Shown here piece after piece: positions 23,333 to 52,149 of a stretch of DNA of 64,000 nucleotides. This DNA comes from Sarea resinae (taxonomy: Eukaryota). Within the stretch, counting starts at the first letter, position 1, and every line of letters begins with the position of its first letter. The stretch spans positions 310,001 through 374,000 of the forward strand of contig JAPEUD010000012.1 in assembly GCA_026026165.1 (NCBI GenBank), written 5' to 3'. The position numbers and the translations under genes were made by a program. The notes under the pieces are model-generated. The model made no database searches and was not told the origin of the DNA. It worked only from the letters and a program-made list of their open reading frames with translations.

Positions 23333-25559
23333 TTATCGCCGTCGTTGCACGATAGCCGATCGTGTCCGATTGATCGACGTCGCCGCATTTCGATCAAAAG
23401 AGCCCCCCACCGCTCCCCCAACGCTCCCTTCTCGTATCGTTTTCCGACGCTTTAGTCCGTCGACGTCGATTTCGCCGCCAGCGCCACGGCTTGTGGGCCG
23501 AGAATAGCGATCTTGGTCGTCGTCGTCGACGTCGCGCATACGCTTGCTCGAGGATGCCGATCCATTAGTAGACGGCTGGTGGGGCTGTGATGGATAGCCA
23601 GTTTGTATTGCCGCTGAAATACCGGGTGTGGAAGAGTATCCCTCACCTCCGGCGTTCCCATTGGTTGCACTCCCCCGCGTATCACCACTCATGACATTGT
23701 AAAGACTGCTAGACGAAGGGAGCTGGGGTCTTGGGGGTGTACTGTAACCCGCAGCCCAGTGAGGCTGACCCGTCGTTGAAGCGCGGGGAGTGACTCGCCC
23801 GGTCTGATTCTGATGAGAAGGAGATCCAGTCATTTCGGGGGAGAGATGAGGATGCTCCCCTTGAAGATTTCCCACTGCTGGGCCGGGATTGTAATTGTAA
23901 GGGCCACGGTTGGCACCATAAGCAGCAGCATTTTCGTGGGAATATTCGTTGTCGTGCTCATGTTCAGCCTCTTCCTCACCTGCACCATGACCAACCTGCT
24001 CATTTCCTTGACCATGCGTCATCGAACCATCGGGCCCTTTCGCGGGGTGATCATATTCTGTACCGGGAGCTCTCGATGAGGGCGGACCCATGTCGTTCTT
24101 GAGATAATGGCTCGACTGCCCGGGTTGTCCGAATCTGGCCATATTCTGCTGCGCGATACTCGGCTGGGGAGCGTATTGGCTTTGTTGCGAAGGGGGGGCC
24201 GAGTACATCGGTCTCGAATTATCATAGCCCTGTCCGCTTTGGTACTGTTGTATGCTTTGCATCGAGTTGCCTGGCGGTGTCGTTGCTGGTGTCGTGGGCA
24301 TCGATCGAGTATTGCTCAATCCGGTGTCGATTGAAAGCGGTTGGGCATTTTGGGCGCTGGGTATCGGCTGACCGCTCCACTCGTACGAGTTGGTTTGACC
24401 AATGTTCATGATACTGGACGCACTTGTTGGAGGGGTGGGGAAGGTGTGAGCCCGGTCCAAACCAGGACGCCCGGCTCCCGGGTGAGGCGCGATTGAGTGC
24501 GGAGATTGTCCGAGATGAGAGCCTATAGAGTTGGCCATCGAATGATGATGATGCAATGAGGGCGGTTGCGAACCTTGAGAGCTACGAATCTGAGCTTGCT
24601 GCTGCTGCTGTTGATTCTGTTCGTACCGTCTCCGCTCTGCTGCCGCCATGACAGCATTCGTACGCGTCTGATTGGAAGGATGGTACAGCAGAGCGCCAAT
24701 GTTATGTACGAAGAGGGGATAGAGCAGTTCCGTGATCTTCTCTTTATTGGCAAAGTCCAGCGCTCGCTCAAAGGGAATCCTACAAACGGTGAGTGCGGTG
24801 CCATGATTGGTTCAAGCTTCCCAACTTACCAAACTCCTTTCAAGTGCATCGGTCCGATCTTGACGACATGTCGAGTCTTCTCGCTCTTTAATATACCGTC
24901 TCGGCGACCACGGGTCATACCAGCAACATTCAGTAGCTTCGTACCATTTATCATATGATTATCTGAATTGCCCTGGTTAGCAGCTGCACTGTAAAAAGCA
25001 GGATAGCATGCACTCGAGGTGGCTGACCTTCTCGTCTGGCGACACAGACTCCCTTCGCCTCGACTTGGAAACACAGGCTGCCTTCGTCCTCCCACAGCGT
25101 AGCAGTGACTCTCGGCTTCATTCCCGGAGGTGCAACCTGTCCTGTCGTGTCGAAAGTCTGCTGCGGGTAACCCTGACCGTTGGGGAGACCCGACGGGCCC
25201 GGCGGCGGTTGTCCGGCTGTGGTCATAGCTAAAGGATTCATCTCAGCCGGCATCAATCGACTGTTGGTCGTTGTTTGTAACTTACCGGGTAACGGCAACA
25301 ACTGCGCGGGGACTTGGCCGCCCATGGACGCCGAAGATGGATGACCACCAGCTTGAGGAGAAGTGACTCCATTTGCGTATGCGTACTGACCATACGAATT
25401 TGCAGGAGAATAGTTTCCCGGCCCTGGTTGTAGTAATGGCGGTTGCTGATACTGAGCGTAATGAGACATGCCTCCAGCAGTTGCCGATGATGGACCTTGC
25501 GATTGACCACCTGACATATGGGACTGATGGACGTCCATGTAAGGCTGGGGCTGATTCAT
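23333..25559 (-). CDS. stuA: APSES transcription factor StuA (AUG-initiated form); exons 25559-25286, 25228-25028, 24962-24830, 24779-23333
   Basis: MNQPQPYMDVH start; APSES/KilA-N domain [74 protein letters not shown]; StuA-typical RPGLDRAHTFPTPP, LSIDTGLSNTRSMPTTPATTPPG, KRRKT. Confidence 0.97.
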
Positions 25560-25940
25560 GCTGGCGTAAGAATCGCTGTAGGCGTAGCCTTGGCCGCTCT
25601 GCTGATCCGACTGGGCAGGCAAATTCTGTGCCTGCGATCCCAAGGCGTGCGGCGCGTACGTGGGAGAGGGGGTCTTTAGGCCGCCGTTGATCCCCTCGTT
25701 CGTGTATGACGAGGCGGATGTATTCGAGCTGGCGTGGCCACTATGCCCAGATGAGGAGCTAAACGATCCACCCCGAGGCGAGGAGATGCCCGAGGAAGAG
25801 CTTCCTTGCTGGGTCTGCGGTAAGGGCAGAGCAGGGAGTCGCTCACTCGTAAGCAATGGACGTTGTGTGTAATATTGACTGTTCCACGGAACGTCTGCGG
25901 GGCCTCGGGTGTGAACTTGGGAGATCGACGGCAGCTCCAG
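25560..25940 (-). CDS. Putative CUG-initiated 127-codon N-terminal extension of StuA (LELPSISQVHTRGPADVPW...)
   Basis: Frame is stop-free from 25994 to the AUG at 25559 with no AUG in any frame; CTG at 25940-25938 in context GAAAAT-CTG-G (A at -3, G at +4). Confidence 0.6.
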
Positions 25941-26042
25941 ATTTTCGGTAGAGGGATGGTAGTGTCCTAGGCGACGGTGATATTCGGTCGAGTACTAAGC
26001 AACTACCGCAACCTGGATTCAGGGAAACGGCTTCTCTTGATG

Positions 26043-26261
26043 CTACTGAAGAAGATTGAAGGAAGCGAAGATGCTGTCGCGGTGGGTGGATTGTGCTAGA
26101 AGGATTTCAATTCGATGGCAGTTCCCAGCTAATGTGCCGGACTGCAGATTTCTGAATGGAGGCGCGTACAGGTCGTAGGTAACGTAATAAGCCTCTCCTC
26201 GAGGTGACGGCAAAGGTATGCAAATCGTAGATGCAGTAGATGCTCGATCAAAATCGCTCAT
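26043..26261 (-). promoter_or_regulatory. Candidate 72-codon uORF in the stuA leader
   Basis: Only AUG between 25560 and 26729 on the minus strand; weak context (T at -3); same frame as StuA but ends at TAG 26045-26043. Confidence 0.45.
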
Positions 26262-26723
26262 AGAATGCTTTTAAGTGCAAGACAATCCCAGCAGGCGCGC
26301 GATTGTGGAGAGCGAACAAAGGACGCTGGAGGGTAGTGAAAAGGTGGTGAGGTGAGCTGCTCAAAATAGGCCGTACGGAATGAAATGGTGAAGGCGACAG
26401 AACAACTCTCGTGCTCGGTATGGCGAGACTGAATTCGGCGAACCAACTTGATCGCCAATGTGTAGAACAGACTGCTATGCTGAAAGTCCAAGAGCAACGT
26501 CGTTTGGCTCGTTTCAAATCGTAAGAGAGGCAAGGCTCGTTATGGAATGCTTTTGGTGCGCTGTAATGCAAGAGGAAAACTTGAGAGTGGCTCCAGATGT
26601 GGTGAGGTTCTGGCTGGTGTTCTATCGGAAGCGGATATGTGAAGCAGGCTGCAAAGTCGAATGGAACAGCGCTTGGAGAGGGCGTTTATCGGCTACTTGC
26701 TTATGATTTTGTCGGGAATCGTG

Positions 26724-26732
26724 TCAATTCAT
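26724..26732 (-). promoter_or_regulatory. Candidate micro-uORF (ATG AAT TGA) in the stuA leader
   Basis: Met-Asn-stop just downstream of the predicted leader intron; weak context (T at -3). Confidence 0.4.
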
Positions 26733-26809
26733 TAAGTTCGTTGCGCTTCGTGATCGTATCGGCGAAAGATTGGGAGATGGGATTTTCGTACGCCGGACGT
26801 CGTCTAACA

Positions 26810-26948
26810 CTGCAGGCCAAGCATTAGTGAAAGGGCATCATTGGCAGACGGCGAGGATGAGAGAGCAAGTGCAGCTTGGGTGGGGGGGAACGAGTGAGAG
26901 CGGTGCCATGGAAGGGAGATGATGCAGACAGACCTTCTCCTGCCTTAC
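26810..26948 (-). other. Predicted 139-nt 5'UTR intron of stuA
   Basis: AG|GTAAGG donor at 26948, CACTAAT branch, GGCCTGCAG acceptor at 26810; contains four local AUGs that splicing would remove. Confidence 0.6.
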
Positions 26949-29009
26949 CTCTCTGTACCTACTCCCAGAGGAAATCTTACACGTGGAGGAGAGAAGGAAA
27001 GGCCGGTCGGCGATGGAGGAGGAGGTAGTAAGGGAAGTAGAGGAAGAAGAGGGACGGCGGGCAATATTGAGTTGAACGTTGTGGTAGGTATCTGTACTTC
27101 GTGGGAGGAGGTTGGGGATGTGCTGGTGTGTAGTTGTGGTGGTAGAGGTGGTAGAGGTGGCAGCAGTGGTGGTAGCGGCGTGCTGGCTCGCCCGGTCGTT
27201 GGTTGGTGCGTTTAGCAGCCCTGGTGGGTGCTGGTGACTGACCGACCACCCTAGCGCCAAGTTGGCTGGCGCGGCACACGGGACCAAGACGGGCAGGTCC
27301 CCTCTGTCACTCTCTCGTCTCTCGACAAGAAAAGCCGATCTGAGCAGTGGCAGAGGCAGTGGTGAGGCCAATGCTGAGCCAGGCACAGGAGCGGGACACG
27401 CGAATTGCCGCTGCGTGCGACGAGTCAAGTGAGCGGAAGAGGGTCTCGTCAACGTGCAGTTCCAAGGAGCGTCGTAGATCGATCGAGCGAGCGGACGAAG
27501 GTCCCGTCTGGGGCAATGGTGAGAGGGGACAATTGGCCGACACTTCGTAATTATTGATTGATGGCCGTGGTCGAGAGATAGCCTGGGCTGCCGACAAACG
27601 GTTCGGCGTTGGTGAGGGCGGGCAGGGAGGTCGGTAGTAGGTATTCGTGGATGCTGAGGAAAGCCCCAATGCTTGCACACTGGACCAGAAAAGGTACACC
27701 TCACTTAGACACTGCCCCGAGCACCAAAAAAGAGAGCTGTCGTTCAGCACCACGGCAGCCGCAGACAGAGCTCTTTCCTATCGGTGCGAAGCAGCAAGCC
27801 GTCCGTTGAAAGAGAGCGGCACGCAGACACGCAGAGGGCCAGCAAGCAAGCAATACCTTAGGCAGGCCGACTAGGTAGACGTTAGGGCTAATTAATACGC
27901 TGAAGGGTTGATGCGATGCGCGGCGTAGTGGTGGCAGGACACTGCCCTTTTACGAAGACGCAGGATGCGTTGCGGGCCGGCGCAAGTTGCAAGGGAGGTA
28001 CGAGACTCCAGAGGGCCAGAGGGGAGGTAGTGGCCGGCCCAGCTGTCGTCTGGAAGGGTAACGAGCAGACACCAACGCTTTAGGCGCAGGAGGGGCGGAC
28101 GAGCGGTGGGCTTTCAAGGATGCAGCTGCTGGTGCAGGTGCATTTGCAGAGGGCAGCAAGTACTGTAGCGAATTGGTAGGTGCAGCTGCTCCAGCAATCT
28201 CAGATCACCTAGTGCCATCGATCAGCCAGACCGAAAGGCGGGACAGGGTGGAGACAGGATGGACGGGGGCAGTACGAAGTCGTCCCAGGTAGGCAAGGCA
28301 GAGGCAGAGGAAAGCGGGATCAGGACTCCAGGAGGGAATAGCGGGACAGCAGAGGAAAGAAGAGGAAAGGTCGTCGAGGGGACCCTGGGGGGCGGGGGTT
28401 GTTTTGGATGAAAGGAAGCTGGTCAACTACCCTTTCGAGGCAAGAGCTGGCTCTAGTTCACAGCGACTACTCTACTGTTGGTGTTCTTGCCGAAGGCACT
28501 CACCATGCGAAATCACATACCCTACCGCGTCTGTTAGATCTCAGAGCATGGGACTTGCTCTGTACGAATGAGGCCGGAAAGTACGAATACATAGTAGGTG
28601 AGAGCGGGCATGGGAACATGGAAGAGCATTGGGGAATCAAGTGAGGAATGGGGCGACAGCAAGAAAATGAAGAAGAATCCGGCGCATACGATACAAAATC
28701 AAAGGATGGAACTACCTGACCGACTGAGCGATTATTGATTATGGATGACCTCCTGCCCTCAGCCATGAGGAGTGACGGATCTGAACCGACTGATTTCGCA
28801 TTAGAGCTCAAGGGGGAACCACGACACCTTCGAGCTCGAAGCTCCGAGCTCCGGGTCGGACTTCGTAGTGATACTTTGCAACATCTGTCTTCGGCCTCAC
28901 GGGCCCCTACAATCGCTGAGCCGGCAAGAAGTCGCAGTACCTGCGCAACGAAAGCGAGCCAGGTAGACGGGCAGGTACTGCGGACCTCAGAGCGTGAGCG
29001 AGCAAGCAA

Positions 29010-50279: not shown

Positions 50280-51060
50280 GAGATTTTGTTGGATAGTAGT
50301 GTGGCAGCTTATAGATATAAATACATGGGTCGTTCTTTATCTGTAGATAGTAGGAATGTTTGTACTCTTTCTATATACTGTAGTTTAGATATCCTGAAAG
50401 ACTAAGGTAGATAATATTATTTTGTGTTTACATTCATTCTTTTTCTTCTCTACCTACCTTACTCTAGAGTAGCTACTCTCTCTCTCTCTCCCCCCCTCTC
50501 TCTATCTATCTATTACTCTACCTTGCCTACCTACTATACCTAAGATATATATAAGGAGGTAGGTAAGATAAATAATCTCTTATAAGAAATAAGGTAGAAG
50601 TAATAGGAAACTTAAGTTAGGTAACTTGACTATCTAGACACTTATAGAGGAATATTAGAAAGACAATTTTCTAGAGAGTTTACTTAGATACTTAGTATCT
50701 ATTTCTATTTTACTCTCTATATTTTTATTTCCAAGTCTACTTCCTTCTACTTCTATAGCACTCTTCTCTTAAGCTACTTTACCTTCTTCCTTTCTAGGTG
50801 TAGTAATTAGTGTTTAGATTAACACATATATATATACACGCACTTACATATACACACCTAGATATACCTAGAGACATATCTTTTTTTTCCTTCAGGCTAA
50901 TTTCCTTGCTCTTAGAAAAAAAAAAGAGTGAAGATACAGCAGAAAAGAAAAGAAGAGGACTTTTTATGCTTGGTTTGGTTTAGAGTATTAGCTAGTGCTT
51001 TAGTATTGATTACCCTGGTTATAGCGAGGATTTGGTTGGATAAGGCAAGGTTGCTAAGAG
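50280..51060. mobile_element. AT-rich island with a RIP-like dinucleotide signature; probably a degenerate repeat or TE remnant
   Basis: Abrupt GC drop, dense TpA, scarce CpA/TpG (clearest at 50521-50760); no recognisable ORF or terminal repeats. Confidence 0.5.
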
Positions 51061-51284
51061 ATAGATTTGTGAACAAGCAGGGCAGAGAGAGAAGAAGAGA
51101 AGGAGAAGAGAGATAAGTAGAGCAAGAGAAGAAGACGGAAAAAAGGAGATCGGAGAAGAAGAACGGATAGAGCCTGTGCCTGATCACTGATAAAGCCCTA
51201 TTCATCGCTTTTCCTTCGCTATCGATACAATCAAAACCATAGACCACGAATAGACAAGGAGCTCATCCGCATCCACATTCATAT

Positions 51285-52149
51285 TCACCCCGAATCCTCA
51301 TCGCTCGTGGCGTCGAAATTCCGTTTTCGCTTCTTCTTCTCTTCCGGCGTACTCTCTCTCCGCTTTCGAGCTGCCGCTTTCGGGGCGTCTTCTTCGCCGT
51401 CTTCGTCGCCACCGCCATCAGCGTCGTCATCGCCAGTCGTTCCTCCGCCCGCGCCATTCCCCGCTCCTCTATCCTCCAGGTCTGCATCTCCCGCCTCGTC
51501 TCCCCCCGGCCCCTCCTCCCCCGCACCGGCCCGCTCTCCACCAGACCCCGACGCAGAAGCATCGCCGTACTCGGGCCTCACGACCTCGGCGCCCAACCCC
51601 ATGTCCACGAGCGCGGCCTCGATCTCCGGCAGCAGCTCCACCAGCGTTGAGAACTGCGCCAGGGGCAGCGCGATGCCTTTCTTGCCGGGGAGCCATTTGC
51701 CGCTGTCTTTGCTCTCGTAGTATTCGCGCACTTGCACCATCGTTTGACCCTTGAATTGCGAGAGCGTGATGCGTTTGGTGCGCGTGAGCTGCCGAGGGTG
51801 GGTGGCGGGTGTTAGTGGGTTCGGGGATGGGTTGTGCTTGTAGGTTGGTGCAAAAGACAAACAAAACACGACGAACCTCCCAATACACATTTCCCTCATC
51901 ATCTTTCCTCTTCTTCTTCTTCTTCTCCCCCCCCTTCCCCGTATCTGGCGCATTTTCCCCTTTGCCCTTCCCGTTCCCTTTCTCCTTTGTACGACCCGCA
52001 CCTCCATCCTCTCGTTTCACCCTCTTCGGTCTCTGCTCCGCGGCCTCTTCGCCTAGGTCAGACGCATCGTCGGGGCTGTCGACGACGAACCCACCGTCTG
52101 CTTCGTAGCGGTCTGAGGCGCGCTTTTTGGTGGATGCACGAGGTGGCAT
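51285..52149 (-). CDS. SUB1: Transcriptional coactivator PC4/Sub1 (p15); exons 52149-51877, 51788-51285
   Basis: DDEGNVYWE|LTRTKRITLSQFKGQTMVQVREYYE..WLPGKKGIAL is the PC4 ssDNA-binding domain; C-terminal KRNFDATSDED. Confidence 0.9.

Follow-up and report, generated by a model that had tools for sequence, protein, structure and literature searches.

Does translation of the developmental regulator gene stuA begin only at its canonical AUG, or does a longer protein also start at a CUG codon upstream of it? The question is raised by a 64,000-nucleotide stretch of Sarea resinae DNA, called the window here, in which the minus-strand frame of a StuA-like gene stays open far above the canonical AUG. 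Sporulation, sexual development and secondary metabolism are under the control of StuA and its orthologues, as is pathogenic development in many species, and deletion, tagging and over-expression of these regulators have been carried out in dozens of fungi.

The stuA gene and its presumed leader in the window

The gene lies on the minus strand (23333..25940) and is described by a four-exon model, with coding exons at 25940-25286, 25228-25028, 24962-24830 and 24779-23333 (stop included), separated by introns at 25285-25229, 25027-24963 and 24829-24780. Read from the CTG at 25940, the model gives an 811-aa translation without internal stops, and read from the AUG it gives 684 aa, which reproduces the 127-aa extension of the original prediction. 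The final 684 aa are identical, with 0 mismatches, to those of P0003, a database protein labelled by its source as a hypothetical protein of a Sarea resinae MAG. The APSES/KilA-N DNA-binding domain occupies 24698..25052 on the minus strand (long-form residues 278-357) and has two introns inside it; Pfam PF04383 was matched on P0003 residues 283-362 at 37.8 bits (cutoff 23.8). Protein searches returned matches that their sources name StuA, from Phyllosticta citricarpa, Aspergillus udagawae, A. lentulus and Colletotrichum spp. Moreover, full-length matches were 50-58% identical to P0009, a homologue of the window gene from Sarcosagium campestre, and segment identities were 52-67% when P0009 was compared with the window by tblastn. 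By these comparisons, the window gene is a StuA orthologue, an APSES transcription factor.

The canonical AUG (25557..25559, minus strand) opens MNQPQPYMDVH, would serve as the start of the short isoform, and corresponds to residue 128 of the long form. Upstream of it, 145 sense codons stand in the StuA frame, the stop-to-stop frame (24951..25994, minus strand) being open from just past an in-frame TAG at 25997-25995 through ATG 25559, as had been predicted. The next minus-strand ATG upstream of 25559, in any frame, is at 26261, a distance of 702 nt that agrees with the predicted AUG-free run of about 700 nt. This gap and another of 1234 nt (28143 to 26909) are the two longest among 1003 minus-strand ATG-to-ATG gaps in the 64-kb window, where the median gap is 40 nt. 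By simple chance estimates, a frame open for 145 codons has a probability of (61/64)^145 = 0.00095 and a run of 700 nt free of ATG one of (63/64)^700 = 1.6e-5; 57 of the 4525 stop-to-stop frames in the window reach at least 145 codons.

The proposed initiation codon of the long isoform is the CTG at 25940-25938 (25938..25940, minus strand). The TAG (25995..25997, minus strand) lies 18 codons upstream of it, and none of the nine near-cognate codons occurs within these 18 codons in the window, the CTG being the first in frame after the stop. It stands in GAAAAT-CTG-G, an A(-3)/G(+4) context, and opens LELPSISQVHTRGPADVPW..., the protein-like sequence that had been expected from this codon.

The presumed 5' leader (25941..28400, minus strand) is ATG-poor. 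From about 28400 to 25601, minus-strand ATGs number 0-1 per 200 nt, the exception being four in 27000-26801. The candidate leader holds short upstream ORFs at 28143 (9 codons), 26909 (23), 26841/26838 (5/4), 26824 (6), 26732 (2) and 26261 (72), the last of which (26043..26261, minus strand, frame 0; MSDFDRAST...) ends at a TAG at 26045-26043 and serves as the first exon of P0003. In Aspergillus nidulans, Wu & Miller (1997) reportedly described a long stuA leader with small upstream ORFs and translational control, the leader otherwise being treated as untranslated. As a separate observation, the plus strand has its two longest stretches between ATGs (610 and 635 nt) side by side at 50356-51601, where there may be another long AUG-poor leader.

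Conservation of the extension and of its proposed start codon

The N-terminal extension comprises 127 codons at 25560..25940 on the minus strand (LELPSISQVHTRGP..W..SERLPALPLP..SSPRGGS..LKTPSP..), carries a coding signal and has homologues in APSES proteins. A protein search with the 145 residues found the extension to be shared by 16 APSES proteins (E<=0.01, 449 candidates), which their sources place in Dothideomycetes, Eurotiales, lichen-forming fungi and Sordariales. Against cluster representatives, the extension query gave 31 matches at E<=1e-3, 15 of them at E<=1e-10, and a second search seeded with a Sordariales protein added 52 further models, including Colletotrichum, Monilinia, Lachnellula, Stachybotrys, Trichoderma and Beauveria. 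As well, KLDLPSIS was found near the N-terminus in 13 of 50 Sordariomycete/Leotiomycete models. No extension matches outside filamentous ascomycete-type models were seen in the protein searches, which also showed, in line with the original prediction, that LPSISQVHTRGP-like sequence occurs in other StuA models.

A 22-row protein alignment places the abrupt onset of conservation at NTEK-LELPSISQVHTRGP (NTEK-LELPSIS); the Leu at the CTG is invariant, and the Met of the canonical AUG (Met146 of the query) is invariant in 22/22 rows. Codon alignments of 32 distinct loci gave pN<pS in 496 of 496 pairs, with a median dN/dS of 0.177 (139 pairs with 0.05<dS<1.5; 32 representatives), and the entropy per codon position in the extension was 0.91/0.76/1.44 (32 loci). 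The reading frame is open at every locus and indels are whole codons. Judged by these measures, the 127-codon extension is coding and evolves under purifying selection; orthologues do show conserved amino acids ahead of the AUG, on which the original prediction depended. The extension, which is probably disordered, has (M)ELPSISQVHTRGP..W as its N-terminal motif, further an RLPxLxLP block, and proline-directed sites at SSPR and KTPSP; no Pfam family was matched within it. AlphaFold2 modelling of P0009 on a 15-row alignment gave a mean pLDDT of 37.7 and a pTM of 0.22 and was uninformative, with the APSES domain also poorly modelled.

For the comparison of the start site, a metagenome scan with alignment yielded 66 loci, which fell into 33 clusters at 97% identity and, with the window, made 34 sequences. 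The loci were fetched by the peptide pattern T[EAV]KLELPS[IL], so amino acids are fixed by selection over -9..+21 and only synonymous positions are free there, and KLDLPS-type classes fall outside the codon comparison. The aligned Leu codon is CTG in 34/34 distinct sequences (33 metagenomic clusters and the window), whereas the following Leu codon varies (CTG 17, CTC 15, CTA 2). The conserved initiation context runs from -13 to +6 (25935..25953, minus strand), with the consensus CAAT-ACCGWAAAR-CTG-GAG and, in the window, CTCT-ACCGAAAAT-CTG-GAG. Within it, ACCG (-9 to -6) is found in 34/34, A(-4) in 33/34, A at both -3 and -2 in 34/34, and GAG at +4 to +6, with its G(+4), in 34/34. Position -5, a second codon position, varies between A and T while the third codon positions beside the CTG are fixed, and the conservation around the CTG is therefore not codon-like. 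Third positions vary freely from +9 on, where three-base periodicity first starts, and the sequence upstream of -13 is near random (entropy 1.5-1.9 bits). Codon-like evolution thus begins at the CTG, and the preceding bases are conserved as nucleotides; they behave as an initiation context would be expected to. The C at -8 matches an enrichment reported for Neurospora crassa start sites (PMC7049704).

Between the upstream stop and the CTG, no in-frame ATG occurs in the window or in 63/63 loci with a stop in reach, where that stop lies 6-176 codons from the CTG. Other in-frame near-cognates upstream of the CTG are present in some loci, at no conserved position. The original prediction of a dN/dS below 1 running from a conserved near-cognate codon, with no in-frame AUG ahead of it, agrees with the values obtained for the CTG and its upstream region. 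Two other candidates were rejected. An AAG start at -3..-1 does not fit the window, which reads AAT, or 7 representatives, which read AAA. A hairpin downstream of the CTG that might aid its recognition was not found by RNAalifold over -5..+80 in 18 sequences, where the predicted fold, at -3.27 kcal/mol, comprised 7 pairs, with compensatory changes in none of them.

Some database ORFs do have a Met in frame, 2-30 codons ahead of the motif (e.g., P0021, P0026, P0031, P0009), so the long form may start at an AUG in some species; this set is biased, since gene callers need a start codon. In some lineages, there is also a weak in-frame similarity to GHSRPF (GHYHP in the window, about 25955-25970) located 8-13 codons upstream of the CTG, seen in the loci L002, L014 and L022 and in P0005, P0021, P0022, P0025 and P0034; this similarity could represent a leader element peculiar to a clade, or else an additional start further upstream. 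In addition, two protein models have Met exactly at the CTG position, P0016 of Venturia nashicola beginning MELPSIS and P0078 of Apiospora hydei beginning MDLPPIS; as protein models, they may point to a CTG/ATG exchange at the true start.

ATG depletion, the two proposed isoforms and competing explanations

The MNQ ATG is the first in-frame ATG past the CTG in 32/32 representatives that reach it, and opens MN[QHP].. Between the two starts, ATGs of all frames are scarcer by a factor of about 30: 12 were counted in 12,192 nt from the CTG to the AUG, as against 320 in 12,174 nt after the AUG (32 representatives), and 21 of the 32, like the window, have none at all between the two. Shuffling of codon order led to an expectation of 47.5 +/- 5.7 ATGs and synonymous resampling to one of 79.5 +/- 7.6, and in neither did any of 300 replicates give 12 or fewer, although these counts are not probabilities because the 33 clusters are phylogenetically related. 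The control region past the AUG was not depleted of out-of-frame ATGs (95 seen versus 60.7 expected). Met codons account for 0/4064 codons of the extension (32 sequences) versus 150/2560 in the next 80 codons. The depletion is confined to the sense strand, ATG standing at 1.0 per kb versus 16.2 for CAT in the extension, and at 0.3 versus 16.9 per kb in the 200 nt ahead of the CTG. Across the loci, sense-strand-only depletion persists at 1.4-6.8 per kb out to about 1.6 kb upstream and reaches background beyond about 2 kb. Its pattern would be the signature of a stretch crossed by scanning ribosomes and, together with the invariant AUG, supports the two isoforms that had been predicted, made via leaky scanning.

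Exceptions to the depletion are found in 11 of the 32 representatives, whose extensions retain one or two frame+1 ATGs. The main one is a frame+1 ATG located 74-83 nt ahead of the MNQ AUG in eight loci (L019, L023, L027, L029, L033, L038, L053, L054), a Dothideomycete-like subset in which it has a poor context (TTGCATGCGCAGT and variants). The spacing of the two starts is also not universal and differs between classes, as 27 of 50 Sordariomycete models (P0084-P0117) have their annotated AUG at M-x-x-[DE]-R just ahead of LPSLPLP, about 30 codons inside the extension. Of the extension, this class would then have just the LPSIS motif ahead of its first AUG.

The arrangement fits a CUG-started long form of 811 aa and an AUG-started short form of 684 aa produced via leaky scanning, and the two-start layout appears to recur in many filamentous ascomycetes. 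The stuA mRNA would carry a long, almost AUG-free leader, along which part of the scanning 43S complexes would initiate at CUG 25940, whose context (A at -3, G at +4) is strong and deeply conserved, yielding the 811-aa protein with the conserved module as its first 127 residues. Complexes that pass the CUG would cross 381 nt free of AUG in every frame and would then start at the invariant AUG 25559, yielding the 684-aa form. Eurotiales-type annotations presumably start at this MNQ AUG and so describe what we call the short form here. We consider it likely that the CUG-started form of StuA exists, and hold with somewhat less confidence that leaky scanning is the main control of the isoform ratio. 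We infer that the CUG is used in vivo and read as Met by initiator tRNA, that leaky scanning sets the ratio, that this ratio follows initiation stringency, and also what the extension module does.

Alternatively, the CUG long form may be real and the isoforms set mainly by alternative transcription starts, one upstream of the CTG and the other inside the extension or just after, which we regard as rather unlikely. If the extension doubled as 5' UTR for a shorter transcript, ATG depletion would equally be expected, and two transcription start sites are given for A. nidulans stuA in a review (PMC3563288). However, the 200 nt ahead of the CTG are equally depleted (0.3 ATG per kb), and this depletion, running about 1.6 kb upstream, fits scanning from far upstream; within the extension, it covers the entire 333-417 nt, starting right at the CTG. 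An internal transcription start could still add to the depletion pattern produced by leaky scanning.

It is a good deal less probable that the long form starts at the AUG of an upstream exon spliced in frame onto the extension, as modelled in P0003. That protein does place an upstream exon at this locus (ATG 26261, predicted intron 26046-25741), the window has two AG dinucleotides in the interval from stop to CTG (25996-25995 and 25968-25967), and in several annotated orthologues the protein opens with Met on a short upstream tail that differs from one model to another. The P0003 intron (GTAGCA donor...CATAG), however, deletes LELPSISQVHTRGP..SERLPALP, the best-conserved part of the region. 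From the ATGs of the ATG-poor zone, stop-free in-frame routes need the donors GTTACC, GTTCCC or GTCTGC, and routes with a canonical donor need introns of about 2.5 kb. No YAG acceptor occurs between the stop and the CTG in 5 of 33 representatives, one of which (L010) has no AG in 78 nt; in some representatives the stop is as close as 6-7 codons to the CTG; and position -1 is G, A or T, which leaves no acceptor at the CTG itself. Splicing would also leave the fixed third bases at -7, -4, +3 and +6 unexplained. This survey of donors and acceptors found no plausible AUG-bearing exon spliced in frame, the case that the original prediction had named as contrary to it.

Close relatives, moreover, bear three different predicted N-termini. 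In the StuA models P0035, P0059 and P0060 (one of A. udagawae and two of A. lentulus), three unlike N-terminal tails stand before the same ...TEKLELPSIS. Among the other StuA models, several are flagged 'partial', and that of Lobaria immixta has LELPSIS as its very start. It seems that gene predictors make up upstream exons so as to supply an ATG, and the 5' end of the P0003 model is probably mis-annotated. As an oddity of clustering, the 90% cluster represented by A. udagawae StuA also lists sequence-unrelated NPP1-domain proteins of A. fumigatus and A. lentulus (about 297 aa).

A conserved non-coding leader element, with the AUG form alone being made, would suit the Eurotiales-type annotations, which presumably start at the MNQ AUG, and the conservation of the block -13..+6 as nucleotides, but it is exceedingly improbable and is in effect excluded by pN<pS in 496/496 pairs, dN/dS of 0.18, the entropy by codon position with its three-base periodicity from +9 on, frames open in every locus with whole-codon indels, and a lack of conserved RNA structure past the CTG (-3.27 kcal/mol, 0 compensatory pairs).

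With the CUG-started long form and the AUG-started short form as the preferred reading, a broader and more tentative proposal can be considered. The use of a CUG depends on start-codon stringency, which involves eIF1/eIF5 levels and eIF2-alpha phosphorylation, and an N-terminal Met-Glu-Leu-Pro is a likely substrate for N-terminal acetylation. It is possible, though we would not favour it as it stands, that the CUG-started protein is the ancestral and main working form of StuA in filamentous ascomycetes, the AUG form a truncated counter-isoform and the extension a regulatory module, which would consist of the N-terminal Met-Glu-Leu-Pro motif followed by proline-directed kinase sites. Since CUG use depends on start-codon stringency, nutrient or stress signals would then shift the isoform ratio. 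If this proposal were true, translation state would be coupled directly to developmental competence, and many published stuA constructs made from the AUG would have tested half the system.

More generally, if the long form exists as proposed, stuA constructs beginning at the annotated AUG lack a 127-aa module, and N-terminal tags placed at this AUG sit inside the long form. As well, many database StuA models would be wrong at their 5' end, including P0003 for this locus and the three closely related Aspergillus models.

Comparison with known near-cognate and APSES systems

In the literature search, which covered the main texts of openly available articles, StuA was not found paired with non-AUG initiation. 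The sole co-mention of StuA and CUG concerns the Candida CUG and is unrelated, and the search for APSES together with non-AUG initiation returned nothing on an N-terminal extension.

Within the APSES family, Candida albicans EFG1 resembles stuA in having a long 5' UTR that acts on translation, and non-AUG leader codons have been discussed for it (PMC6034079). In that study, however, the speculation concerns UUG-started uORFs alone, and an N-terminal extension is not proposed (PMC6034079).

Fungal aminoacyl-tRNA synthetases share with stuA a weak upstream start in a strong context followed by a downstream AUG (PMC7049704). Near-cognate and weak AUG starts are reported there to have replaced each other repeatedly in fungi (PMC7049704). 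This agrees with the Venturia nashicola and Apiospora hydei models, in which Met stands at the position equivalent to the CTG. The synthetase extensions are mitochondrial targeting peptides (PMC7049704), whereas the StuA extension would be a 127-aa low-complexity module of a nuclear regulator.

The closest known case is cpc-1 of Neurospora crassa, the GCN4 homologue, whose study makes no mention of asm-1, StuA or APSES in its main text (PMC5487733). According to that article, cpc-1 is likewise a Pezizomycotina transcription factor gene with a long leader containing uORFs; above the AUG its main frame is open and lacks any further in-frame AUG, purifying selection acts on the extension, a near-cognate start stands in a conserved A(-3)/G(+4) context, and automated annotations include the extension without resolving its start (PMC5487733). 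The two cases differ in that several near-cognates (NCC6-8, including ACG) and two conserved uORFs that control reinitiation are described for cpc-1 (PMC5487733), while in stuA a single invariant CUG marks the boundary and the leader holds predicted short uORFs. In the same account, cpc-1 has in vitro, reporter and ribosome-profiling support (PMC5487733); the stuA long form is proposed here from sequence comparison. If the CUG-started form of StuA is real, StuA would follow cpc-1 as the second transcription factor of filamentous fungi with a deeply conserved near-cognate start.
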